Positions 7,704 to 42,274 of a stretch of DNA of 64,000 bases are shown in pieces. Made by a program: the position numbers and the translations under genes. Under the pieces are notes generated by a model. It did not search any database. It worked only from the letters and a program-made list of their open reading frames with translations, and was not told where the DNA came from. Position 1 is the first letter of the stretch, and the number at the start of each line of letters is the position of its first letter. This DNA comes from an uncultured Candidatus Saccharibacteria bacterium (GTDB taxonomy: Bacteria > Patescibacteriota > Dojkabacteria > SC72 > JAFGCJ01), in contig CAYZTC010000001.1 of the NCBI GenBank assembly GCA_964481345.1, positions 142,188 to 206,187 on the forward strand, read 5' to 3'.

Positions 7704-7753
7704 ATCGAAGGAATTATATCACAACAAAGAAATCTGACGGGTGTTTTAAGCAG

Positions 7754-11637: not shown

Positions 11638-12360
11638 GTGAACGTCTTCATTATTGAAGACTCCCCTACAATAACCCTCATTCTAGAAAGAACACTCAGT
11701 TCATACGGATACATTCCTCTTTGTCACACAAGTGACACCTTCTCAACAAAATTCCTTAAAGATAAACCTCATGAATTTTTTATTATGGATACAAATCTAT
11801 ACAAAGCAGACAGCCTAGAAATCTGTTCAAAAATAAAAGAAGTATGTCCATCTGCATACGTCATAGGTATAAATCATAGAGGAACATGGAAAGACAGAAT
11901 AGAATTTTTAAAAAGTGGTGCAGATGACTGTATTTCGTACCCTTTTCCACCAGAAGAAATACTTGTAAGAATCCAGGCCCTTCTAAGAAGACCCAAAAAA
12001 TATATCTCAAGTAACCTAAAATATGGGAAATTCTTGATTGACACATATAATCAAGAAGCCTTCTACAACAGTAGATTACTTAAACTTTCTAAAAAGGAAT
12101 ACCAAATACTTGAGTATTTTATTCGAAATAAAGAAAGGAAAGTCTCAAGATCTGAATTACTTGATCATGTATGGGACTACCGTAAATCAAGCAGCTCTAA
12201 TACAGTAGATGTTCATATCACAAAGCTTAGAAGGAAAATTACAAAAGCTAAAAACAAAAGATATCTCAACAAAGATAATTTTCAACAAAACTCTGAAATA
12301 CAAACGATATACGGAGTAGGATATCAACTTAAAGATAATTTCGAAGAAAAAGGAAGCTAA
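11638..12360 (+). CDS. OmpR/PhoB-family response regulator (receiver + winged-helix)
   Basis: 240 aa; receiver motifs (IMDTNL, KSGADDCISYPF) and C-terminal trans_reg_C-like region (ELLDHVWDY...VDVHITKLRRKI); GTG start. Confidence 0.75.
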   Translation: MNVFIIEDSPTITLILERTLSSYGYIPLCHTSDTFSTKFLKDKPHEFFIMDTNLYKADSLEICSKIKEVCPSAYVIGINHRGTWKDRIEFLKSGADDCISYPFPPEEILVRIQALLRRPKKYISSNLKYGKFLIDTYNQEAFYNSRLLKLSKKEYQILEYFIRNKERKVSRSELLDHVWDYRKSSSSNTVDVHITKLRRKITKAKNKRYLNKDNFQQNSEIQTIYGVGYQLKDNFEEKGS

Positions 12361-13499
12361 TCTATCCTCATAGGCATTATTATATGTAGGTAGTTTTCAT
12401 CCTTTTCTGACTTAAACACACCAGGTGCTGTAGAGTTACTACTCTCCATTATCATAGTCTCCCCCTCGATACAGGAAAGCATATCACTAAGAAACTTTGC
12501 ACTAAATCCAATCTCTAGCTTATCACCCTCCACTTTAGCCTTGAAACTACTCTCATTTTCACCCACCTCTACAAGTGCTGCCCCTACCTTCACTTCACCT
12601 TTTTTAGGGTCTATTTCTATTATTGCCTTATTTCCAATTACATTTCTTGCAAATATATTTACTATTCTCACAGCATTTCTAAACTCATCTGTGTCTACTT
12701 CTACCCTTGTCTGATACCCAGTAGGAATTATTTGCTTATACTCTGGAAACTGACCGTCTATCAATCTTGACGTAAGATCAACTTCCTTATATCTAAGTAT
12801 TACCTGATTTTTGCTTTTTAAAAGGTAAACCTCTACATAATCCTTCTTTTTTGAGTCTCCATCCTCATACAGATCACCTATTATTCTTGCTAACTCCTGC
12901 ATTGTTCTTGCTGGTATTAATAGATCCAAAGATTCTTTAGTACTCTTCTCAAGCTCTATAAACTGTCTTGCAAGCCTAAACCCATCCACAGATATCAGGG
13001 TTAACTTTTTTCCATCCACCTCTACTTTTATACCTGTAAGTACTGGTCTAGACTCATCAGATGCCGAAGCTATTGCTACTCTATTTATAGCATTTTGTAT
13101 TTCCTCTGGTTTAACCGAAAAAAGAAGATTCCCGTCCTCTATACTTGGAACTTTTGGAAAATCATCGGCTGGTAAAGTGTTAAATTGAGCAGAATTGTTC
13201 TTCGTTGTTACCTTTAGAATCTGCTTATCTAAAGTAAGATCAACTTTTTCCGAAGGCAGTGAGTTTACAAATTCGGAAAAAGTTCTCGCTGGAATTGTTA
13301 TTATTCCTTCTTCTTTTGCTTCAGCACCAATCCATGTATGTACCCCCATCTCTAGATCAGTTGCTGTTAGCTTAAGCTTGCTACCCTCCGCCTCTACTAA
13401 TACATTAGCAAGGATTGGAAGTCCCGGTTTACTACTTACTAATCTTCCCACTATACCTAACTGCTTAGCTAAACTAATTTGATTACAACCAATCTTCAT
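12357..13499 (-). CDS. dnaN: DNA polymerase III beta sliding clamp
   Basis: 380 aa, typical DnaN N-terminus MKIGCNQISLAKQLGIVGRL..PILANVLVEA. Confidence 0.9.
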   Translation of the reverse strand: MKIGCNQISLAKQLGIVGRLVSSKPGLPILANVLVEAEGSKLKLTATDLEMGVHTWIGAEAKEEGIITIPARTFSEFVNSLPSEKVDLTLDKQILKVTTKNNSAQFNTLPADDFPKVPSIEDGNLLFSVKPEEIQNAINRVAIASASDESRPVLTGIKVEVDGKKLTLISVDGFRLARQFIELEKSTKESLDLLIPARTMQELARIIGDLYEDGDSKKKDYVEVYLLKSKNQVILRYKEVDLTSRLIDGQFPEYKQIIPTGYQTRVEVDTDEFRNAVRIVNIFARNVIGNKAIIEIDPKKGEVKVGAALVEVGENESSFKAKVEGDKLEIGFSAKFLSDMLSCIEGETMIMESSNSTAPGVFKSEKDENYLHIIMPMRID

Positions 13500-13956
13500 A
13501 AAAAGATACTCACAAAATTATGTTTGGGCAGACTAATATAACGTAAGTTTTTTAATACAGTAATAGTATATAGTAGGCGGTGTGGAATTGTCCAGAAATA
13601 TTGATTGAGTACTGATAATACAACGTTTTTATAGAGTTCTTTATTGTCGAAAACTTTTATTTTGGTAATACTTCCAGTAGAGGTGTCTATTTGGTTGTTT
13701 TGATAGTATTTTCCTAACAAAAGAAATAGTGAAGAGAAAGAATTTCCCTTATCTATAGATATATTAACGATGTAAAACGTTTTGTGGATAACTTTTGGAA
13801 AAGTTGTTGATAAACAACATATGTTTAGTTTTTATCCATTACTGAGATTAGCTTTGAGATGGGGAACTTTTAATGGTTGTAGGTAAATATGTTAAAAGAG
13901 AGACCCGTTATTATTGCAGGCACTGTCCACAAAATGTGTCCTATTGTCCACAATAT
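13500..13956. promoter_or_regulatory. oriC half (DnaA-box cluster + AT-rich unwinding region) upstream of dnaN
   Basis: TGTGGATAA at 13783-13791, TTATCCATT 13832-13840, TGTCCACAA at 13924-13932 and 13945-13953; AT-rich stretch ~13600-13700. Confidence 0.6.
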
Positions 13957-15387
13957 TTAAGATGAGGTTTTACTTTGGTAGAGAGGTATTTCAAAATAAA
14001 ATATTGATCCTTTCCCTTTTTCACTTTTAACCCCTATTTTTCCTTTGTGCGCTTCTATAATGTTTTTTGAGACATATAGACCTAGTCCAGTACCGCCTGT
14101 TCTTACAAGAGAGTTTTGGTCTCCTCCGGTATATGGGTCTATCCTCGAGAATTTTTGAAAAAGCTCATCCTGATCCTTTTTATCAATCCCTCCCCCTGTA
14201 TCTCTTACTGACATTTTCAGAGAGCTTTGGTCTGATATTATTTCTATTTCTATGTATCCCTTGTTAGTATATTTAATGGCATTATTTAAAAGGTTATCAA
14301 TAACCTCTCTTATCCTTACTTTGTCTACTTCAGCGTGGACTTTGTTTTTAGGCTTGTCAAACTCTATTGATAACCCTTTTTCATTAGCAAGGGGGGTAAC
14401 GTCTTTAATTGCTTCACTAACAATATCTACAAAATCATGGGTGTCGATCTGGAGAACAAAATACTCATTGTCTATCCTTGTTGTTTCGAGGAAGGAATTT
14501 ATTATTTGTATTTGCCTTTCTATGCTGTCAATTAATCGTTGGAGATACGTTTTAACTTTGGAGTCAATGGCCTTTGGACTTTCTTTTTTAAGATAATCTT
14601 GCAACATATGGAGGTTTGTCTTAATAACGGACGCAGGTGTTCTGATTTCATGGCCTGCCATATCCATTAAATTCTTCTCTTTCTGATATAAAGCCTCAAG
14701 GTCATCATATAGTTTTTGAAGTTCTTTATTTTTTGACTGGAGAGATTCCGTTGCCTTGTCGATCTTTTGCTGAAGAGTTTCATTAAATGATTCAACTTCT
14801 TTATATAGAAGTGCTCTACCAATCGCTATAGAAGTATTGTCGATGATGCTTTTTAGAAGGGAAGTCTCTTTCCCCTTTGGTATTTTCTTATCGCTTGACT
14901 CTCCAAATAGAAAGAGCCCGGAATATTTAGCTTCCTTAGTCATTGGAATCACTATTTGGATATTGTGCTTCTTCATGATTTCTAATACTTCCATTTTTTG
15001 ATTTGATATCTTGTTACTTGAGTCTTCTCCAATGAGGAAGAGCTCATCTTGGAGAATAAGAGTTTTGTCGCTGTTACTGGAATAGAAGTATTTTGCAAGT
15101 TTTTTTAGCTGGTGAATATCTGGAATTTTTACCTGTTGGCTTTGTTCATAAATGATCTTCTTTTCGTCTGTATCTAATAGGACAACAGCAGATGAGGAAA
15201 TATTGAAGGTGCTATTTATTATTGAAATGAAGAGAGTGGCGATTGCATCAAGATCAAGTTCTGAGGAAAATGTGCTTGTAGAGTACAGCCTGCTTGCCGC
15301 CTTGCTCTTACGTTTAGCGAACGTGTAAAGAGACAGGGCTAGAGAGATAATTCCTGTTATTATTATTGAAACATTCTCAATTCTCAT
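13957..15387 (-). CDS. Sensor histidine kinase (HisKA + HATPase_c)
   Basis: 476 aa; H-box MAGHEIRTPASVIK, N/G-box NLLNNAIKYT...GGTGLGLYVSK; N-terminal TM. Confidence 0.85.
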   Translation of the reverse strand: MRIENVSIIITGIISLALSLYTFAKRKSKAASRLYSTSTFSSELDLDAIATLFISIINSTFNISSSAVVLLDTDEKKIIYEQSQQVKIPDIHQLKKLAKYFYSSNSDKTLILQDELFLIGEDSSNKISNQKMEVLEIMKKHNIQIVIPMTKEAKYSGLFLFGESSDKKIPKGKETSLLKSIIDNTSIAIGRALLYKEVESFNETLQQKIDKATESLQSKNKELQKLYDDLEALYQKEKNLMDMAGHEIRTPASVIKTNLHMLQDYLKKESPKAIDSKVKTYLQRLIDSIERQIQIINSFLETTRIDNEYFVLQIDTHDFVDIVSEAIKDVTPLANEKGLSIEFDKPKNKVHAEVDKVRIREVIDNLLNNAIKYTNKGYIEIEIISDQSSLKMSVRDTGGGIDKKDQDELFQKFSRIDPYTGGDQNSLVRTGGTGLGLYVSKNIIEAHKGKIGVKSEKGKGSIFYFEIPLYQSKTSS

Positions 15388-15487
15388 AGGACAGTTTATA
15401 AGTGTAAGTCTAAAGGTATTATAGTGGACAGGCTAAACTTTTTGAAATGTCTTTGTGGTGATGAAAACATCAGTTTTAAAAAATTCG

Positions 15488-15507
15488 TGGGAGTTATTTT
15501 TTGACTC
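15488..15507 (-). terminator. Hairpin GGAGT-N10-ACTCC downstream of dnaA stop, with T-run
   Basis: gggagttattttttgactcc palindrome followed by a T-run on the minus strand. Confidence 0.35.
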
Positions 15508-15532
15508 CTGTGTTGGGGTATAAAGCCCTTAT

Positions 15533-16972
15533 TCATAGCTCTATATTGTGAATTTTTTCCTTGAGTGTTTCATCCTCCTCCATCTTCTCTTCTATCCTAT
15601 CTACGGCATTGAGAACAGTCGTATGGTCATTCCTATTTAGTTCTCTTGCAATTCTCTCAAGTGGAAGGTCAAGCTCCTTTCTCATAAGGTACATGCATAT
15701 ATGTCTAGGTACCACTATCTCCGATGTTCGTCTTTTACCCCTAATATCTTTTACTGAAATCCCAAACTCTTTACTTACATTTCTGATGATATCTCTTGGA
15801 GATGTTTTCTTCCTTTTACTAGCAGAGTCTATATGAAGCATCATTGCAACTTCCTCTTGTGAGGGAATTGTTCCTCCTATTTTTACATGAGTACCTACCT
15901 TAATTAACGCACCTTCAAGTTCTCGGATATTGTCATCAAACTCTTTAGCCACAAAGTTAAGGATGTAGTCTGGAAGGAAGATTCCTTTATCATCAGCCTT
16001 TTGCTTTATTATTGCTATTCTAGTCTCATAGTCTGGTGCAGAAATATCGGCTACCATTCCACCTTCAAACCTAGACTTCAGTCGATCAGTTAGTTTTTCA
16101 ATTTCTCTTGGTGGGCAGTCCGAGGCTAGTACGATCTGTTTACCAGTTTGGTATAGGGTGTTGAAAGTGTGAAAAATCTCAGTCTGTGCCATGTCCCAGT
16201 TTGATATAAACTGGATGTCGTCTATCATTAATATATCAAGCTTTCTGTACATGTTCCTGAATTCGTTAGTATTGCCCTTTCTTATAGAATTAACCATCTC
16301 GTTTAAGAAAGATTCGCTTGGACAATAAAGAACTTTTTTGTTTGGATCTCTGTTTATTACTCTGTTTGCAATAGCATGCATTAGGTGAGTTTTTCCTAAT
16401 CCAACTCCTCCATAAATAAAAAGTGGATTGTATGATCTTCCAGGGTTGTCAGAGACAGCATCGGCTGCAGCATGGGCAAGTTTGTTGAAAGACCCAACGA
16501 CGAAGGTTTCAAATGTATATAGTGGGCTTACGTTCCCCTTTTCTCTTGCATCATCTACGAGATTTTGGTGAGTATATGGAATGTTAAAAATGGGTGCCTC
16601 GTTTGGGGAAATTGTTGTGCCATCATATCTGCTTTTTACTTTTTCTTCGCCACCATCTATTTCAAAGACAATGTCGATGTCTCTACCGGTAATTTCCTCC
16701 AGTAAGTTTTTGATAAGTTTGTGGTGATTTGAGTCAAGCCATTCTCTTGCAAAATTAGAGGGGCATGATATTGTAGCAATTCCATTTTCAACTTGTGCTA
16801 GTTCAGTATTTTTAAACCAAGCTGAAAAGTTCTGCGAGGTTATCTTCATCTGAATTTTTTCAAGTGCAATCTTCCAAACCTCGTTTGTATCAATAACCTT
16901 TTCCTTAGATCCTTTAGTGTTTGGAGTCTTCAATTTTTTTACAATAGTCTTTAGTCGGGGCAGATGGGACAA
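15533..16972 (-). CDS. dnaA: Chromosomal replication initiator DnaA
   Basis: 479 aa; Walker A GGVGLGKTHLMHAIAN, C-terminal DNA-binding domain. Confidence 0.95.
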   Translation of the reverse strand: MSHLPRLKTIVKKLKTPNTKGSKEKVIDTNEVWKIALEKIQMKITSQNFSAWFKNTELAQVENGIATISCPSNFAREWLDSNHHKLIKNLLEEITGRDIDIVFEIDGGEEKVKSRYDGTTISPNEAPIFNIPYTHQNLVDDAREKGNVSPLYTFETFVVGSFNKLAHAAADAVSDNPGRSYNPLFIYGGVGLGKTHLMHAIANRVINRDPNKKVLYCPSESFLNEMVNSIRKGNTNEFRNMYRKLDILMIDDIQFISNWDMAQTEIFHTFNTLYQTGKQIVLASDCPPREIEKLTDRLKSRFEGGMVADISAPDYETRIAIIKQKADDKGIFLPDYILNFVAKEFDDNIRELEGALIKVGTHVKIGGTIPSQEEVAMMLHIDSASKRKKTSPRDIIRNVSKEFGISVKDIRGKRRTSEIVVPRHICMYLMRKELDLPLERIARELNRNDHTTVLNAVDRIEEKMEEDETLKEKIHNIEL

Positions 16973-17172
16973 ATCCTGTTAGGATAGGACAAGTGGAATG
17001 TATCACCTTGTGGATAAGTTTTCAAACCCTTAGTGTGAAATTATGAAATTATGTTGTTGAATAGAAAGTTATCCACATGAAATATTAGCTATAATTTCGA
17101 TAGAGAGTTTTTCCATGTGAGGGAAAGTACATCCTTGAGCATTACAAAACCATATGATAAACTCCTTTCGCA
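16973..17172. promoter_or_regulatory. Second oriC half / dnaA-rpmH divergent promoter region with DnaA boxes
   Basis: TGTGGATAA at 17010-17018 and TTATCCACA at 17069-17077. Confidence 0.55.
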
Positions 17173-20581: not shown

Positions 20582-22858
20582 GTGAAAGATTCAACTGTGG
20601 AAATTTCAAAAGCCTACGATCTTAAGGAAGAAATGGGAATATATAAGCTATGGGAGGATTCGGGTTTTTTTGATCCGGATAAGATGGAAAGTAAAAAAGA
20701 TCCATTTGTAATAACTCTCCCACCTCCTAACGCAAACGCAGGGCTTCACGTTGGAACCACTTGCGGATATTCATTTCAAGATGCGATGGGAAGATATCAT
20801 AGGATGAAGGGGCAGCCCACTCTCCTACTTCCAGGGAAAGATCATGCCGGTATTCAAACGGAGGCTGTGTTCGCAAAGGTGTTAAAAAAACAAGGTGTTG
20901 ATAAATGGGAAATTGGGAGAAAAGAGTTTTATAAGAGAGCTTATAAATTCTGTATGGATAATGCAGAACATGCAAGAAATCAGGAGAGAAGAATTGGACT
21001 TTCGGCAGATTGGTCGAGAGAGAAGTTCACGTTAGATCCAAAACTTTCGGGAGTTGTATTTGAGACTTTTTATAAAATGTTTGACGAAGGTCTGATATAT
21101 AGAGGTAGTTATATTATCAACCAGTGTACGAACTGTAGAACTGCTCTCGCTGATATTGATACAGATCATGTTATGAAAAAGGGAATTTTTGCATATATCA
21201 AATATCCGATTGCAGGGAGTAAAGATGAGTTTGTGACCGTTGCTACAACTAGACCTGAGACTATGCTTGGAGATACAGCTGTTGCTGTGAATCCAAGAGA
21301 CAAAAAGAACAAGAAGTATGTGGGGAAAATGTTGGTGCTTCCCCTTACAGACAGACAAATACCTGTGGTTTCTGATGACAGCATAGATATGGATCTTGGT
21401 GCCGGTGCATTGAAGGTTACCCCAGCCCACTCTTCCATCGATTATAAACTTGGTATAAAACATGGACTTGAAATTCTCAATGTAATAAATGAGGAAGGTA
21501 AAATGAATGAAAATGCCCCGAAGAAGTATGTTGGAATGACGGTAAATGAGTGTAGAGATGAAGTGTTAAAAGACCTGAAAGATCAGGGATATCTTGAGAA
21601 AGTTGAGGATATTCAACATGAGGTGATTGTGTGTGAACGGTGTCAGAATGATATTGAACAGATAATGTCCAAGCAGTGGTTTGTAAATGTTGATCCGCTT
21701 GCAAAGGAATGTTTGAAGGCATTAGACGAAGGTGGAACCAAGGTTATTCCAACATTTCAGGAAAAAGTATTAAGGAATTGGTTTGAGAATATTGAGCCTT
21801 GGTGTATTTCTCGACAATTGTGGTGGGGACATAGGGTTCCAGTTTGGTATTGTGGGAGTAAAGAGCTTTATGACTGGTTGCTTGATAATCCAGAAAAATC
21901 TAAGGCTGGGTTTGAAAAGGAGACAGGAAAAAAGGCCGAGGGATGTGGGCATGTGATTACAGGGGAAGTAAAGCCAGAAAAATGTAATAAGTGTGGATGC
22001 ACAAAATTTGAGCAGGAGACTGATGTGTTTGATACATGGTTTTCTTCTGGACAGTGGCCATTCAGTACAATGGGTGGAATTGAGGGAGAAGATTTCAAGA
22101 GGTTTTACCCTACTGATGTCATGGAAACTATGCATGATATTCTCTTTTTCTGGGTGGCCAGGATGATGATGCTTGGAATGTATAGGACAGGGAAAACACC
22201 ATTTCATACGGTATATCTTCATGGGATGATACTTGCGCCAGATGGAAAGAAGATGTCAAAGTCAGCTGGCAACGGTATTGAGCCTGAGGAGGTATATGAT
22301 AAGTATGGTGGGGATGCTCTTAGACTGTGGTATTTTCTGGATACTATGCCGGCAAGGCCCTCTCCTATTCGGTATGAAAAGCTTCAGGGAAATAGGAATT
22401 TCGTAAACAAGATATGGAATGCCAGTAGGTTTGTAATGATGCAGCTAGAAGATTTGTCAGGTACAGATATGAAAGAACTGGACGGTTTAGTCGAGGAAAA
22501 TGTGAAGTCTTTATCTAAATCCAAAGATAAGTGGATATCACAAACAAATGATTTTGCAAAAAGCGTGACCGAATTTATTGAGAAGTACAGATTTAATCTG
22601 GCGGTAGAAAGCTCAAGGGAGTTTTTCTGGCACACATTCTGTGATGAATGGATTGAGGAAACAAAGAATCTCATCCAAAGGGAGCCGGATAAAAAATTGG
22701 AATATTTGTCTAGGCTTATTTCTGTGCTTGTGATACAAATGAAGGTACTCCATCCGTTTGCGCCTTTTGTAACAGAAAAAGTATGGCAAAGCTTGATTAA
22801 AATAGGATTACTTGACTGGGAGAGTGAGTTATTGATGGTATCAGATTGGCCGGTTTAG
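20582..22858 (+). CDS. valS: Valyl-tRNA synthetase (short form lacking C-terminal coiled coil)
   Basis: 758 aa; PPPNANAGLHVGTT (HIGH-like) and KMSKSAGNGIEP (KMSKS); GTG start. Confidence 0.85.
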   Translation: MKDSTVEISKAYDLKEEMGIYKLWEDSGFFDPDKMESKKDPFVITLPPPNANAGLHVGTTCGYSFQDAMGRYHRMKGQPTLLLPGKDHAGIQTEAVFAKVLKKQGVDKWEIGRKEFYKRAYKFCMDNAEHARNQERRIGLSADWSREKFTLDPKLSGVVFETFYKMFDEGLIYRGSYIINQCTNCRTALADIDTDHVMKKGIFAYIKYPIAGSKDEFVTVATTRPETMLGDTAVAVNPRDKKNKKYVGKMLVLPLTDRQIPVVSDDSIDMDLGAGALKVTPAHSSIDYKLGIKHGLEILNVINEEGKMNENAPKKYVGMTVNECRDEVLKDLKDQGYLEKVEDIQHEVIVCERCQNDIEQIMSKQWFVNVDPLAKECLKALDEGGTKVIPTFQEKVLRNWFENIEPWCISRQLWWGHRVPVWYCGSKELYDWLLDNPEKSKAGFEKETGKKAEGCGHVITGEVKPEKCNKCGCTKFEQETDVFDTWFSSGQWPFSTMGGIEGEDFKRFYPTDVMETMHDILFFWVARMMMLGMYRTGKTPFHTVYLHGMILAPDGKKMSKSAGNGIEPEEVYDKYGGDALRLWYFLDTMPARPSPIRYEKLQGNRNFVNKIWNASRFVMMQLEDLSGTDMKELDGLVEENVKSLSKSKDKWISQTNDFAKSVTEFIEKYRFNLAVESSREFFWHTFCDEWIEETKNLIQREPDKKLEYLSRLISVLVIQMKVLHPFAPFVTEKVWQSLIKIGLLDWESELLMVSDWPV

Positions 22859-25207
22859 TTACAGCAAATTCTCCACTAGTTTTTTGAATTCTTTTAATTT
22901 CTCCTCAATTTTTTTCTTATCAATCTGGGAATTTCCTTGGAGTATTACAAGTATATCCTTTGTGTCGGTTGTAATTTTTGTTCTATCGCATTGTTTTACT
23001 GTAAGTCTGCATATTACACCTTTATCATCAATGTAACAGTATTCTCCTTTTTTAGCCGTCATTTTTTCATCATTTCCCATTTGAGTAAATTCTTGATCTT
23101 CTTTTAACATCACCAACTTTACATTTCCAACTATTTTTGACATATCGTGTGCGCCAAATGTAATTCCAGATTCGATTGAAAAGATGTTGTATAGGTCGAC
23201 AAATGTATTTATATTGGGGATATTTCCCTTCTCCAGAAGCAATTCAGTAAGTTTTTCACTTGCGGCCGGAAGGTTCTTTTCCTTTGAATACATGTCATGT
23301 TGCTCTCTGTATGCCTTATTTTCTGGAATGGCGGAAATGTCTTGTTTTTCATATTTTTTAATTAGTTCCTTTTGCTTTTCTTCCATCCATTTTTTTAAGG
23401 TTGAACTTTGTCTTTTGATGTTCAAGTTCTTAATTATTGTCCATGTGATTGGGATATCCTTTTTAAGATTTTCATTCTGAACTAGTTCAAAATTTGAATA
23501 GTCAACGGTTTTCACATTCTCTGTTACTGGGTCAATTTTATTAAAGAGTACTTCTGGCTTTTCTTTTATTTTGATATTCTTTAATTCTTCAAATTTCCAG
23601 CCTTCATCTTCATATTCAATGTTCAAAAGTCTGAATATTTTGTCGGATATTTCTGGCATGAATGGCCTCGATGTTATCGCCAAGGCCTTTATGATTTGAA
23701 TACAGTCATATATTGTCTGGCTGCACTTTTGTGGATCTGACTTGAGTGTGGCCCAAGGTTGATTCCTATCAAAATATTTATTTCCAAATTGGGCAAGTTC
23801 TATAAAGCTGTCAGTTGCTTTTGAAAACTCACATTTTTCGATAAGATCACCGACCCCTTTAATTGACTTGTCTATTGCGTTTTTGACCTCTGTGCTTATG
23901 GTCAGTTTTTCTTCGATTATTCCATCGAGTTTTGAAAATACAAAGTAGAGATTTCTATTTATAAAGTTCCCGAAAGTTGCGACAAGTTCATTATTATTTA
24001 GATCTACGATATCCTTATACGTGAACTTTCGATCGTGGTTTTCAGGTGCATATTTGCAGAAGAAATATCTCACTAAATCTGTACCGTACTGATCTAACAG
24101 TAAATCTGCTTCAAGTAATGTGCCTTTGCTTTTTGAAATTTTTGTTCCTCTTTCAGTAAGAAACTGGTTTGCAGGTATATTGTATGGAAGATTTAGTGGT
24201 TCGGCTCTTGTTTCTCCAGGCAAACTTGGCTCATATTTTCCATTTTTATATTTCTTGTTGTATGCAATTATTATTGCTGGCCATAGTATTGTATGAAACG
24301 GAATATTGTCTTTGGCGATGAAGTAGAAATGCTTTGCCTTAGGGTTTTTCCAAAAGTGTTCCCATTTACTTGGATCTTTGCTTTTACTTGCCCACTCGAT
24401 GGATGCGCTTAGATATCCCATTACTGCCTCAAACCATACGTATATGTCTTGGTCTTTGTATTTTTCGATTGGGATATCAACTCCGTACCCTATTTTTCTT
24501 GACACGGCCCTTTCTCTTAGTCCCTCTTTTAACCATGATTGAGCAAATCCTATTACCCTTTCTCTCCAAACATTTTTACTGTTTTTAACTAATTCTCTTA
24601 TCTGTTTATCAAACCTGGGTAGATCAAAAAATAACACTGTATGTTTTTTCAGTATAGGTTTTTCTCCCGTAAGTTTACTTTTGGGGTTTTTTAGATCTGA
24701 AGGATCAAGAGTTCTTTCACAGCCATCATTGCACTGATCGCCTCTTGCTTTTGTGTTGCCACAATATGGGCATGTGCCCTCGATATATCTGTCTGCTAGA
24801 AACTGTTTTGCTTTTGGATCGTAGTACTGTTCGACTTCTTTTGGGTATATGTCTTTGTTTTCGTACATTACTTTAAATAGGTTTTGTGCGATCTCTTTGT
24901 GGTTTTGTGATTCTGTAGTAGTAAAGATGTCCCATTGAGTATTTAGTTTTTTAAATGTTTCTAGAAAGGATTTACTGTACTTTTCTGCAAGTTTATCTGG
25001 CGGCAGTCCTTCTTTTTGGGCTTTTACTGTAACAGGAGTTCCGTGTGCATCAGCACCGGAGACCAAAAGTACGTCATTACCTTTTTGTCTGTGGTATCTT
25101 GCAAAGACATCGCATACCACATTTTGTCCTGCGAGATGACCAATATGTAACTTTGAGTTAGCATATGGCCAGGAAACACCTATAAATATTGTTTCTTTGA
25201 TTTTTAT
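22859..25207 (-). CDS. metG: Methionyl-tRNA synthetase; 5' end extended beyond ORF-track start (25120) to include HIGH motif; start codon non-canonical/uncertain
   Basis: Zn knuckle CPYCGNTKARGDQCNDGCE, KISKSKG; manual translation upstream of 25120 gives ...IKIKETIFIGVSWPYANSKLHIGHLAGQNV in frame with no ATG/GTG/TTG before the stop at 25238-25240. Confidence 0.8.
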   Translation of the reverse strand: MKIKETIFIGVSWPYANSKLHIGHLAGQNVVCDVFARYHRQKGNDVLLVSGADAHGTPVTVKAQKEGLPPDKLAEKYSKSFLETFKKLNTQWDIFTTTESQNHKEIAQNLFKVMYENKDIYPKEVEQYYDPKAKQFLADRYIEGTCPYCGNTKARGDQCNDGCERTLDPSDLKNPKSKLTGEKPILKKHTVLFFDLPRFDKQIRELVKNSKNVWRERVIGFAQSWLKEGLRERAVSRKIGYGVDIPIEKYKDQDIYVWFEAVMGYLSASIEWASKSKDPSKWEHFWKNPKAKHFYFIAKDNIPFHTILWPAIIIAYNKKYKNGKYEPSLPGETRAEPLNLPYNIPANQFLTERGTKISKSKGTLLEADLLLDQYGTDLVRYFFCKYAPENHDRKFTYKDIVDLNNNELVATFGNFINRNLYFVFSKLDGIIEEKLTISTEVKNAIDKSIKGVGDLIEKCEFSKATDSFIELAQFGNKYFDRNQPWATLKSDPQKCSQTIYDCIQIIKALAITSRPFMPEISDKIFRLLNIEYEDEGWKFEELKNIKIKEKPEVLFNKIDPVTENVKTVDYSNFELVQNENLKKDIPITWTIIKNLNIKRQSSTLKKWMEEKQKELIKKYEKQDISAIPENKAYREQHDMYSKEKNLPAASEKLTELLLEKGNIPNINTFVDLYNIFSIESGITFGAHDMSKIVGNVKLVMLKEDQEFTQMGNDEKMTAKKGEYCYIDDKGVICRLTVKQCDRTKITTDTKDILVILQGNSQIDKKKIEEKLKEFKKLVENLL

Positions 25208-25284
25208 GGTAGTAAAAATTTGATTGTTACAATAGGATTATACAAAGATTGCCATTTTTTAACAATAAAATCTATAATATCTTC

Positions 25285-25725
25285 ATGTCCATAGAACTAT
25301 TTCAACAGTATTGCAAACAAAATAAAATAGAGGTTGATGTTCTTAATGAGGGGTCTACAACTCATACAGCGAGGGACTCGGCGAAAACTCACGGTATTGA
25401 CTTGAACAGGATTGTTAAATCATTATTGATCAAAATTGGAGGTGAGTTTTGTGTTTTTCTTGTGCCAGGTAACAAAAGGTTAGACTTTAAATATCTTGAG
25501 GAACGTTTTGGTACGGAGGATATTAGAATGGCAACTGCAGACGAGGTGAAGGAGATGACCGGTTATTCTATCGGAGGTGTTCCACCTTTTGGGCATAAGA
25601 AAAAGTTGAAAACGCATATTGAAGATGGTTTTCCAGCCAGTAAGCAACTGTTAGCAGCAGCTGGAAGAGAAGATTCTGTGTTTTGGGTAGGTTTGGATAA
25701 GTTGAAAGAGATTGCCGCTGGCTAG
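25285..25725 (+). CDS. YbaK/ProX-type aminoacyl-tRNA deacylase (start may be 25249)
   Basis: MSIELFQQYC...GYSIGGVPPFGHKKK matches YbaK deacylase domain. Confidence 0.7.
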   Translation: MSIELFQQYCKQNKIEVDVLNEGSTTHTARDSAKTHGIDLNRIVKSLLIKIGGEFCVFLVPGNKRLDFKYLEERFGTEDIRMATADEVKEMTGYSIGGVPPFGHKKKLKTHIEDGFPASKQLLAAAGREDSVFWVGLDKLKEIAAG

Positions 25726-25760: not shown

Positions 25761-25783
25761 TTTAATGTTTTTGGCTGGATATT

Positions 25784-26785
25784 ATGTCTCCGCAAGAAGA
25801 ATTAGATGATTATATTGCTGGCAGTGAGGATCGTGATCCATTACTAACCTTTCTGCCCCTGGGACTACCTGATATGTTCGGGCAAGAAATCATCGCTAGT
25901 CCCGATAATAAGAAATTTGAGATTATTATTCACAATGATCCTGGAGGCCACAGACCAATTGATATTTTCGAAAAGGTTGTCGGTTTCACATATGAAGTGT
26001 TGATTAATGCAAAGCGAGTTAGTGTGTGTGGGTCCTCTTTCTGCAAAGAAGACGGTAAGGAAAATATTGGAAAGATAGATAAGTTTAACGAAGACCTTGT
26101 TCTTTTCCTCCAAAAAGGGGTAATGTCGAAGTTTTTATATGATGCATTTCCCGATAATGGACTCAGAAGATCCTTTTTGGGTCGTATTATTCTTGGAGCA
26201 CCGCGGGAAATATCTATTGACTGGTATGAAAATTCACAGGAAGAGGCAGAAAAAAGAAAAAGGGAAGAAGAAGCTTTTGGATCGTTAGTAGAAATGGATC
26301 CATTAGTCGTTATGAGAATGGTGGGGGATTTCTGCTCTGAGATACCTTTAAGATATAAACAAATAATACGGAAGGAAGGGAAGAATACAGCAAATGGATC
26401 TGGACGTGTTTCTATTGCAATAACCAAGAAGGAATTTACGCTCATAAAGTATTTTGCACATAAGTTCGAACAATTCAGCCGTTTGGATGGCGTTGGTAAA
26501 CATCGCTCATTTAAGCCAGGAGGTAAATATCGTTCAAAAAAGCCAAGAGGAAGAAGAGGGAGGGAAATTATGGACCTAGAACAAAACGAGATAAAAAACA
26601 TGCTCGAATCGAATAAAGAAGCTTTATCTCCAAGGGAGAGAATCATACTTGAGTTAAGGTTTGGTCTTCAGGGTAGAGAACCAAGAACTCTTGAGGAAGT
26701 GGGAGAAAAGTTTAACTTAACAAAACAAAGAATTAAACAAATTGAAGCAAAAGCATTAGAAAAGTTAGAAGACGCATCTACTTAA
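25784..26785 (+). CDS. Sigma-70 region 4 domain protein (stand-alone r4 HTH fused to novel N-terminal region)
   Basis: C-terminus [48 protein letters not shown] is ~75% identical to region 4 of RpoD encoded at 41101-42243; no regions 1.2-3 present. Confidence 0.6.
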
Positions 26786-39227: not shown

Positions 39228-39638
39228 TGGTGGAGACGGTGGGAATTGAACCCACGTCCAAAAGAATCGTCAAATGCAATGATACAAGCTTAGTCAGTTT
39301 GACTAATCAAGGATTTAAAAACTGACAAAATAATCCCTGAAGAGGTGATTTTAAAAATTCTCAGGTTGGGCTCACCTGGTTACCCTTCCTGTATATCCCG
39401 AAAATGAACGAGCTTTAGATACCTCATCGGGAAGAAGTGACCCAAGCTCACAGTGGAATTACCCTACTGACATGTTCATGTTGAGACCAGCAAAAGCTGA
39501 GTTAACACCTGCTGCAAATTTCTTTGCTGCTAGTTGAACACGGTTTTTAAGTGAATCTGCACTTATTTTTTGTTTTTAAGAGCGATTACTCTGCTTGGTG
39601 CATAGGACTTTAGCTTTTGTCGAAGCCTTGTCGTCCCC
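39228..39638 (-). ncRNA. ssrA: tmRNA (ssrA), one-piece, ~411 nt
   Basis: 5' GGGGACGACAAGGCTTCGAC... pairs with 3' ...GGGTTCAATTCCCACCGTCTCCACCA (tRNA-Ala-like acceptor with G3:U70, T-arm, encoded CCA); TATAAT boxes just upstream at 39651-39666. Confidence 0.8.
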
Positions 39639-40885: not shown

Positions 40886-41104
40886 ATGACTAAAAGATTA
40901 CTAGGAATAATAATTTTTTCAGTATTGACTGTTGTTATATGGATTGGATTTGAGGTATGGATGAGGCTTGGTTCTCAGGAAATACAGTTGAACTATGAAA
41001 ACTATCTTCAGACTGTAGATTCAGAGTTTGATTCAGAAACGATAGATGAACTTGTGACAAGGGAGGAAGAGTATATGCTTATAGATCGTGACGACTTGGA
41101 CTAG
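40886..41104 (+). CDS. Small membrane-anchored hypothetical protein
   Basis: 72 aa ORF with N-terminal TM, follows pilO. Confidence 0.35.
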
Positions 41105-42243
41105 TCAATATAATCCTTGAGCTGTTTTTCAGAGGAAAATGTCTTTAGCTTTTTCAGTGCCTTTGCTTCAATCTGTCGGATTCTTTCTCTTGTTACGCCA
41201 AACTCTCTTCCCACTTCTTCAAGGGTTCTCGTGACTCCATCCTGAAGACCAAACCTTAACTCAAGTACCCTTCTTTCCCGGTCCTGGAGAGAGTTTAAGA
41301 TATCTCTCATTTGGCTTTGAAGAAATGCGTTTGTGGCAAGATCTTCTGGCGAAAGAGTTTTTTCGTCAGGGATTATGTCTTGAAGTTGGCTATCCTGCTC
41401 TTTTCCGATGGGAGTAGAAAGAGACTTAGGATGCTGTTGAATTTTGAGAATATTATTTACCTTATCCACCTCTAGTTCCATCACCTTTCCTATCTCTTCT
41501 GGGGTGGGTTTTCTTCCGAGTTCTGCTGAAAGCTGAGCTGAGACCTTACTCAGTTTATTGATTGTTTCATGCATATGTACTGGTATTCTGATGGTTCTTG
41601 CCTGGTCAGCAATAGATCTTGTAATTGCCTGTCTTATCCACCAGGTAGCGTATGTTGAAAACTTAAATCCCCTTTTATAATCAAACTTTTCAACAGCCCT
41701 CATTAGTCCAATATTACCCTCCTGGATGAGATCTAGAAGATGTAATCCCCTGTTTGCATACTTCTTTGCTATGCTAACAACAAGTCTCAGGTTTGCAGTC
41801 ACGAGAAGCTGCTTTGCCTCCTCCTCCTTCTTTTCGACTCTTTTTGCCAGAGTAACCTCTTCCTCTTTAGTGAGAAGTGGGGTCTTTCCGATCTCTTGAA
41901 GATATGATCTAATAGCGTCATTTGAGATATTTGACTGGATAGATTTAAGTATCTTTATCTTCTTCTCCAATGTCATCTCTTCCTCTTCTTCCTCAAGCTT
42001 CTCCTCTGGCACATCAAGTACTTCGATACCGTTGTATTGGAGGGTGATAAATATTTCATCTAGTGCATCTAGATGGTTTTCTATGTGTGGAATTTCTTTT
42101 AGTATGTCCTCCTGTGTTAAAAAACCCTGCTCTTTTCCCTGCTTTACTAACAGTTTCATAACCTTTTCAATTTTTGCTTTTCTTGAGCTCTTGGGTTTAG
42201 TTTTTGTTTTTTTAGTTCTTTTAGTTTTTTTCTTACCAGCCAT
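41101..42243 (-). CDS. rpoD: RNA polymerase sigma factor RpoD (sigma-70) with basic N-terminal tail
   Basis: 380 aa; regions 1.2, 2 ([12 protein letters not shown]), 3 and 4 ([12 protein letters not shown]...[13 protein letters not shown]) all present. Confidence 0.9.
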
Positions 42244-42274
42244 TGTTTAGTGCTATGTTATAATACTATATCTT

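Follow-up and report, generated by a model that had tools for sequence, protein, structure and literature searches.

The metG gene, encoding methionyl-tRNA synthetase (MetRS), lies on the minus strand of a 64,000-nt stretch of DNA (hereafter the window) from an uncultured Candidatus Saccharibacteria bacterium, a small-genome, Dojkabacteria-like organism (GCA_964481345.1, CAYZTC010000001.1, positions 142,188-206,187). The window is part of a metagenome-assembled genome (MAG), and all metG coordinates given here are window positions on the minus strand. As re-annotated, the coding sequence would span 22859..25201, specifying 780 amino acids and a stop codon at 22859-22861. The open reading frame (ORF) is intact across these 780 codons and shows strong third-position bias. 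Its product has the features of a class I MetRS, namely the HIGH signature (CAT ATT GGT CAT, 25136..25147, residue 19), a KMSKS-type signature (KISKS, 24128..24142, residue 354), a full catalytic domain and an anticodon-binding domain. It matches the Pfam family tRNA-synt_1g (PF09334) with E = 8e-136 over profile positions 2-390 of 391, also matches PF19303, and scores 484 bits against TIGR00398, for which the cut-off is 336. An earlier note on this DNA had considered that HIGH might be supplied by a separate polypeptide; it is instead encoded within the same metG polypeptide.

The feature that sets this gene apart is its start. The longest metG ORF with a canonical initiator runs from a GTG at 25120 to 22859 (753 amino acids, MVCDVFARY...), and this GTG lies downstream of HIGH. 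Upstream of it, the frame is open from an in-frame TAA (25240-25238) through HIGH (25147-25136), and its translation reads as a stop followed by SYCNNQIFTTIKIKETIFIGVSWPYANSKLHIGHLAGQNV; from 25270 downward, the same frame gives FYC, a stop, KMAIFV, a second stop, and then SYCNNQIFTTIKIKETIFIGVSWPYANSKLHIGHLAGQNVVCDVFARY. The first in-frame ATG, GTG or TTG after the TAA is GTG 25120 itself, so that none lies in the interval from the upstream stop to the conserved N-terminal domain. No GGAGG-like Shine-Dalgarno sequence precedes metG in the window. The near-cognate codons in frame are ATT (25219-25217), ATA (25207-25205) and ATC (25201-25199), together with two further ATA codons (25189 and 25183) within the first beta-strand, IFIGV. 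The earlier note had described the late GTG, the lack of any canonical start or Shine-Dalgarno sequence between the stop and that GTG, and the first three near-cognates as candidate initiators; our frame check agrees with it on each point, down to the coordinates.

Short stretches that lack a canonical start are, as such, not uncommon. At metG, the tRNA-synt_1g alignment opens at the I of IFIGV, 21 codons before GTG 25120, and the Pfam and PDB alignments together indicate that translation must begin upstream of IFIGV. The GTG used by gene callers (25118..25120) is a false start, an internal Val codon whose equivalent in relatives is ATT, ATC or GTA. An AGGA lying 6 nt ahead of it is probably what draws gene callers to it.

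To place the start, we compared the region as DNA across five lineages (seven aligned sequences), comprising the window and relatives whose MetRS proteins are 64-76% identical to that of the window. These are L006, a MAG (76% identity); L001, carrying P0002 (64%); L002, carrying P0003 (67%); and L003 with L015, carrying P0004 and P0124 (65%). L006 was the one useful relative obtained by a scan of genome contigs. A protein-guided scan of metagenome contigs returned only distant loci, or loci without a 5′ end, and a search of metagenome contigs for the leader DNA pattern gave no matches.

Ahead of HIGH, all five lineages are without an ATG or GTG, and none has GGAGG, AGGA or GAGG within 20 nt upstream of the proposed start. 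In three of the five (the window, L006 and L002) there is an in-frame stop just upstream. This is a TAA inside the promoter -10 box in the window and L006, and a TGA one codon ahead of AAG-ATC-AAA in L002. In L001 and L003, the frame is open back to the TTG of TTGTATAAT, a codon that directly abuts the -10 box (TTG-TATAAT). Comparison with related metG orthologues, which the earlier note had recommended, therefore adds four further lineages without a usable canonical start. The defect is shared by four diverged lineages and thus belongs to the clade rather than to a single assembly.

This sharing bears directly on two doubts: that a genuine ATG was lost through an error of sequencing or assembly, and that metG is a pseudogene in decay. 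The window does derive from a MAG, and one homologue (L012, discussed below) looks frameshifted, with an ATG 1 nt out of frame beside an A-run. However, the start region is identical in L014, a JGI metagenome contig that represents a separate assembly of the same population and matches the window at all but 1 of 5262 nt. The common defect in four diverged lineages, and the intact ORF with its HIGH and KISKS signatures, full Pfam coverage and codon bias, argue in the same direction. We therefore reject the sequencing error proposed in the earlier note, and regard error or decay in general as very improbable.

Only one near-cognate codon is present in all five lineages. This is the ATY codon at 25199..25201, which is ATC in four lineages and ATT in L001, and the AAA that follows it is invariant, third base included. 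In L002, the ATC is the sole candidate between the in-frame TGA and beta-strand 1. Downstream of ATY, the five lineages differ at 39 columns; 26 of these are third positions of codons, and the single indel spans 3 nt, equal to one Lys codon. In the stretch from the -10 box to ATY, 16 of 36 columns are variable and are distributed non-periodically (7, 5 and 4 across the three phases), while a 1-nt indel shifts the frame of everything upstream. At the level of sequence comparison, these patterns show a boundary between coding and non-coding sequence at ATY.

The protein that would result from initiation at ATC has a conventional N-terminus. It reads MKETIFIGV... in the window and L006 and MKK(E/Q)VIFIGV... 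in the other lineages, and N-termini of like form (MEKIFIGV, MKKILIGV, MNSKKIFVGV) occur in the family. Its length would be that found in solved MetRS structures: structure alignment matches the ATC residue to residue 4 of E. coli MetRS, while T. thermophilus MetRS has five residues before its equivalent of F18 (its residue 6), as would the ATC-started protein. We consider it likely that metG is intact and expressed, and that it starts at a conserved non-canonical AUC (25201-25199) to give a 780-residue MetRS. A rare non-AUG start was the first option put forward in the earlier note, and the comparison favours ATC among the three candidates it named.

Initiation at another upstream Ile codon, either ATT (25217..25219) or ATA (25205..25207), appears unlikely. 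Both codons are in frame, follow the TAA, and lie downstream of the predicted transcription start, and every lineage retains the ATT as sequence. However, in L002 the ATT is followed four codons later by an in-frame TGA. The ATA is represented by CTA, CAA, TGA or CAG in the other four lineages, which also leaves unsupported the suggestion that a corrected read might turn this ATA into ATG. Further, no protein-level conservation is seen in the codons that separate ATT from ATY (FTTIK, FNSLE, FITQK, IITRQ); their changes are not biased towards third positions, and a 1-nt indel lies in the region upstream.

A start inside IFIGV, at ATA 25189 or 25183, is quite improbable. ATA or ATT is found at both positions in all lineages, and NCBI has used the equivalent ATA in its annotation of a distant homologue (P0099 = WKZ31574.1, MGVSW...). 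Yet both codons specify conserved Ile residues of beta-strand 1, and alignments to solved MetRS structures and to the Pfam profile begin at this strand or earlier. Initiation there would thus cost the protein part of its Rossmann-fold core. Translation from further upstream is also indicated by the sequence that separates ATY from IFIGV, where the changes are synonymous or conservative and the indel is of 3 nt.

The sequence upstream of the proposed AUC start contains a predicted sigma-70-type promoter. It consists of a -35 box TTGTTA (25260..25265, conserved in relatives as such or as TTGTGA in L002), a 17-nt spacer, and a -10 box TATAAT (25237..25242), with 10 of 12 matches; the -10 box contains the in-frame TAA at 25240-25238. 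At this box, TTTGTATAAT is invariant in all seven aligned sequences. The strongly conserved block of the alignment comprises TTGTTAAAAA, about 10 nt, and TTTGTATAATCC(T)TATTGTAWCAAYCAAATTWTTA, followed by a variable stretch and then ATY-AAA. Transcription would begin near 25230-25227, about 7-10 nt past the -10 box, judging from the 6-9 nt that separate -10 box and ATG at local leaderless genes. Such a start would place both ATG 25255 and TTG 25245 outside the mRNA. It would also yield a predicted 5′ leader of about 29 nt (25202..25230), rich in A/U, with TCAAYCAAATTWTTA as its conserved core (the window itself has ACAAT...). A gap of 35 nt separates the end of the -10 box from ATC, well outside the 6-9 nt that characterises leaderless genes, and no -10-like hexamer nearer to ATC is conserved.

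The predicted promoter also constrains programmed events, another option raised in the earlier note. These would be initiation at ATG 25255 with readthrough of TAA 25240, a shift out of the frame opened by TTG 25245, or termination and reinitiation after a short upstream ORF. In the window, the ATG (25255-25253) is in frame and opens a five-codon peptide, MAIFV, ended by the TAA, and the TTG frame terminates at a TAA (25206-25204) that overlaps the ATA just upstream of ATC. Yet the ATG sits between the -35 and -10 boxes, and no relative has it. The TTG lies immediately next to the -10 hexamer, ahead of the predicted transcription start, and its frame relation to metG varies between lineages owing to the 1-nt indel. 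No upstream canonical ORF, slippery site or stimulatory structure is conserved, and we assign programmed events of any of these kinds a very small probability.

Several candidate elements in and around the leader were tried and rejected. A second promoter that would produce a leaderless AUC transcript depends on a hexamer (TACTAC, TATCAC, TATCAT or TAACTC) in which the essential final T is missing in four of the five lineages. An A-U hairpin in the window leader (AUUUUUA / UAAAAAU) is not conserved. The leader core TCAAYCAAATTWTTA is not enriched in the window, with 23 matches against 29.6 expected, which gives it no standing as a shared enhancer or operator. A palindrome, ATTGTAACAAT, at the predicted transcription start is perfect only in the window and degraded in L001, L002 and L006, and was likewise dismissed as an operator. 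The leaders have no consensus helix, their minimum free energies being equal to or weaker than those of shuffled sequences with L002 a marginal exception, and the start region is also unstructured by folding energy. Rfam searches of the whole window, and of the leader at a relaxed threshold, detected no leader family, T-box or riboswitch, and returned one chance snoRNA match (E = 0.6).

As a control, stop-to-stop translations of the 47 other window ORFs of 150 codons or more were searched against Pfam, and the domain positions compared with the first canonical start. Among all 48 ORFs, metG is the only one with a Pfam domain upstream of its first canonical start (domain at 18, start at 39). 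In every other ORF with a Pfam match, the domain begins at or after a canonical start; examples are dnaN (domain 7, ATG 6), a response regulator (9, GTG 6) and dnaA (32, TTG 2). About 15 of the 47 control ORFs had no Pfam match and so were not judged. With metG the sole exception, non-canonical starts do not seem to be in wide use in this organism.

A GGAG-type Shine-Dalgarno sequence occurs in only about six window genes, and metG is therefore unexceptional in lacking one. A TATAAT-like box (at least 5/6 matches) ends 6-9 nt before the ATG of at least 11 first genes in the window, for instance at 25273-25287 (+) and 7719-7733 (-), and leaderless architecture appears widespread in the window. 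The literature on leaderless mRNAs in Patescibacteria yielded passing mentions only. What is unusual at metG is the 35 nt from -10 box to start, and the codon itself. As for the components that would read this codon, the RNA genes in the window are limited to tRNA-Asn, tRNA-Ser and tmRNA, with no initiator tRNA among them, and Pfam scans of the window ORFs found no infC.

Outside the clade, metG starts are canonical in the outgroups compared. L016 (P0006) has a genuine ATG 13 nt after a -10-like box, TAAAAT, L018 (P0005) has one 8 nt after another such box, TAATAT, and L017 (P0008) also has a genuine metG ATG. All three have a short leader or none, and they too are without Shine-Dalgarno sequences. 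Since the outgroups keep the ATG, its loss is specific to this clade.

Two anomalies were found among the 120 best homologues. The first is in L013 (CP129478.1, a complete Dojkabacteria genome), a distant lineage at 48% identity, where metG has no in-frame ATG, GTG or TTG for 24 codons after a TAA (L013 1429-1503). NCBI annotates an ATA start inside its IFIGV (the MGVSW call mentioned above), and an ATT-AAA lies one codon past the stop (TAA-AAT-ATT-AAA). When the N-terminal extension of this protein was compared with P0098 by BLAST, the alignment held only from QKIFIGV onward. In the second, L012 (1360-1395, P0048), the metG ATG, beside an A-run, is offset by one base from the frame of the catalytic domain (ATGAAAAGATC; ATGAAAAGATCTACATCGGC). 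This represents either a frameshift at the A-run or another near-cognate start, at an in-frame ATA or ATC. Together, these two anomalous starts suggest that a non-canonical metG state may recur in Dojkabacteria.

Public gene calls for the clade reflect the missing initiator. The call for the window genome (P0001) is truncated to 753 amino acids, and P0003 and P0004 are called at 735, starting MVSGADAHG. P0002, from L001, is called from the TTG abutting the promoter -10 box (MYNPYC...); in L003 the gene caller passed over that TTG and took the internal ATG. The prediction in the earlier note that gene callers would cut off the catalytic N-terminus is thus borne out by P0001, P0003 and P0004. 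All public MetRS calls for the clade are wrong, either through loss of HIGH (753 or 735 amino acids) or through a TTG start. Consequently, automated pipelines would score metG as truncated or as a pseudogene in estimates of completeness and metabolism for these reduced genomes.

The C-terminus and surroundings of metG have features of their own. A B3_4 domain (PF03483, E = 2.4e-20, residues 658-776 of the post-stop translation) is fused to the C-terminus of MetRS at 22910..23266 on the minus strand. B3_4 is the editing and tRNA-binding domain type of PheRS-beta, and in MetRS it replaces the usual tRNA_bind/EMAP domain or, in some homologues, adds to it; the fusion is present in about 40 of the best 120 homologues. 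Downstream, valS (+, ending at 22858) and metG (-, ending at 22859) converge with zero intergenic bases and no terminator, and their L001 and L003 counterparts have a 4-nt overlap. On its other side, metG adjoins a divergent gene for a YbaK-like aminoacyl-tRNA trans-editing protein (25285..25725, +). This gene appears leaderless, with a promoter of TTGCCA (25249-25254), an 18-nt spacer and TATAAT (25273-25278), and an ATG 6 nt further on. Beside it, positions 25766-26785 (+) encode a 333-residue protein whose only domain is a C-terminal Sigma70_r4, while a full RpoD-like sigma factor is encoded at 41101-42246. Elsewhere in the window, dnaN (12357-13517) and dnaA (15533-16978) lie on the minus strand at the minimum of cumulative GC skew (about 14-18 kb), and the region 12357-16978 is probably that of the replication origin. 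The DnaA_N domain begins before the first dnaA ATG, and dnaA therefore probably starts at its TTG. The tmRNA gene (39228-39638, -) has a long predicted tag peptide, ADSLKNRVQLAAKKFAAGVNSAFAGLNMNMSVG, followed by a stop.

Several considerations weigh against initiation at AUC. The evidence for coding is thin over the stretch between ATY and beta-strand 1, which is just 4-5 codons long. In the window, ATT 25219 and ATA 25207 are likewise open and in frame. Five lineages are too few to show selection against a third-base change to ATG (we estimate a neutral P of ~0.24). A second copy of metG may exist elsewhere in the genome, beyond the 64-kb window. Lastly, the non-canonical starts of Streptomyces sigR and of infC are backed by a good ribosome-binding site (PMC5472188); metG, unlike these, has none, and its weak start would be still weaker, for an essential enzyme.

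If metG does start at AUC, expression might proceed as follows. The sigma-70-type promoter would produce an mRNA with an A/U-rich, unstructured leader of about 29 nt lacking a Shine-Dalgarno sequence, and 30S subunits would load independently of such a sequence, as appears true for most window genes. The pairing of initiator tRNA with AUC would include a mismatch at the third position, and the invariant AAA second codon would be of help. Reading of the AUC as initiator would generate the 780-residue MetRS, beginning (f)Met-Lys-Glu-Thr-Ile-Phe-Ile-Gly-Val. By analogy with E. coli, a weak start under IF3 proofreading would keep the level of MetRS low, and could be tuned by the availability of IF3 or initiator tRNA. 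The identity of the initiating tRNA, the efficiency of the metG start, and any regulation of it are matters that we infer.

The infC gene, which encodes IF3, has a weak start codon that serves as the sensor for IF3 autoregulation. MetRS makes the Met-tRNAfMet needed by every initiation event, and a start disfavoured by IF3 and by the abundance of initiator tRNA could therefore link MetRS synthesis to the state of initiation. We speculate that a regulatory link between MetRS supply and the AUY start might exist. That AUY is a selected sensor, in an infC-like homeostatic loop connecting MetRS synthesis to the state of the initiation machinery, is a rather doubtful proposition. Were it correct, metG initiation could, for instance, become relatively more frequent when proofreading relaxes, or Ile-tRNA could initiate when initiator tRNA runs short. 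In E. coli, low abundance of tRNAfMet has been reported to permit initiation with elongator tRNA, loosening fidelity (PMC3017606), and AUA, AUC, AUU and CUG initiate at about 1-2% of the level of AUG (10.1101/063800).

Conserved AUC or AUU starts are rare, and in the literature searched no such start has been described for an aminoacyl-tRNA synthetase or in bacteria of the Candidate Phyla Radiation. The pairing proposed here would be an unusual one, in that the enzyme that charges initiator tRNA would itself be made from a codon mismatching that tRNA, without a Shine-Dalgarno sequence. It makes metG a concrete and testable case for the study of initiation fidelity and of Shine-Dalgarno-independent initiation in Patescibacteria.

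Among known systems, the closest parallels to a metG AUC start are infC and pcnB, the only genes confirmed to start with AUU in E. coli (10.1101/063800). Like them, metG would combine a near-cognate AUY start, a housekeeping role in the translation apparatus, conservation in relatives, and routine mis-annotation (10.1101/063800; PMC5472188). It differs in that its codon is mostly AUC, it has no Shine-Dalgarno sequence, and the feature is conserved only in one small clade whose outgroups have ATG. A ribosome-binding site that would position the weak codon is lacking at metG, and any IF3 dependence or autoregulation, as seen in infC, is for metG only a proposal. A second parallel is Streptomyces sigR, whose conserved GTC start is repressed by IF3, as non-canonical starts are in general, and sets the level of SigR; its start is misplaced in all genome annotations (PMC5472188). 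Like sigR, metG would have a non-canonical start that is conserved within a genus-level clade and not more distantly; both have been given misplaced starts in annotation, and low output is proposed for metG as well. However, the sigR start is experimentally proven and is preceded by a very strong ribosome-binding site (AGGAGGTG), whereas the metG start is proposed from sequence and has no ribosome-binding site.

A last comparison is with leaderless and other Shine-Dalgarno-independent genes. Leaderless initiation is not known to work without a 5′-terminal AUG or GUG. With its -10 box 35 nt from the proposed start, the metG mRNA would not be leaderless. The likeness lies in the start region itself: metG, like most genes in the window, is without a Shine-Dalgarno sequence, and the sequence around its proposed AUC is A/U-rich and unstructured.

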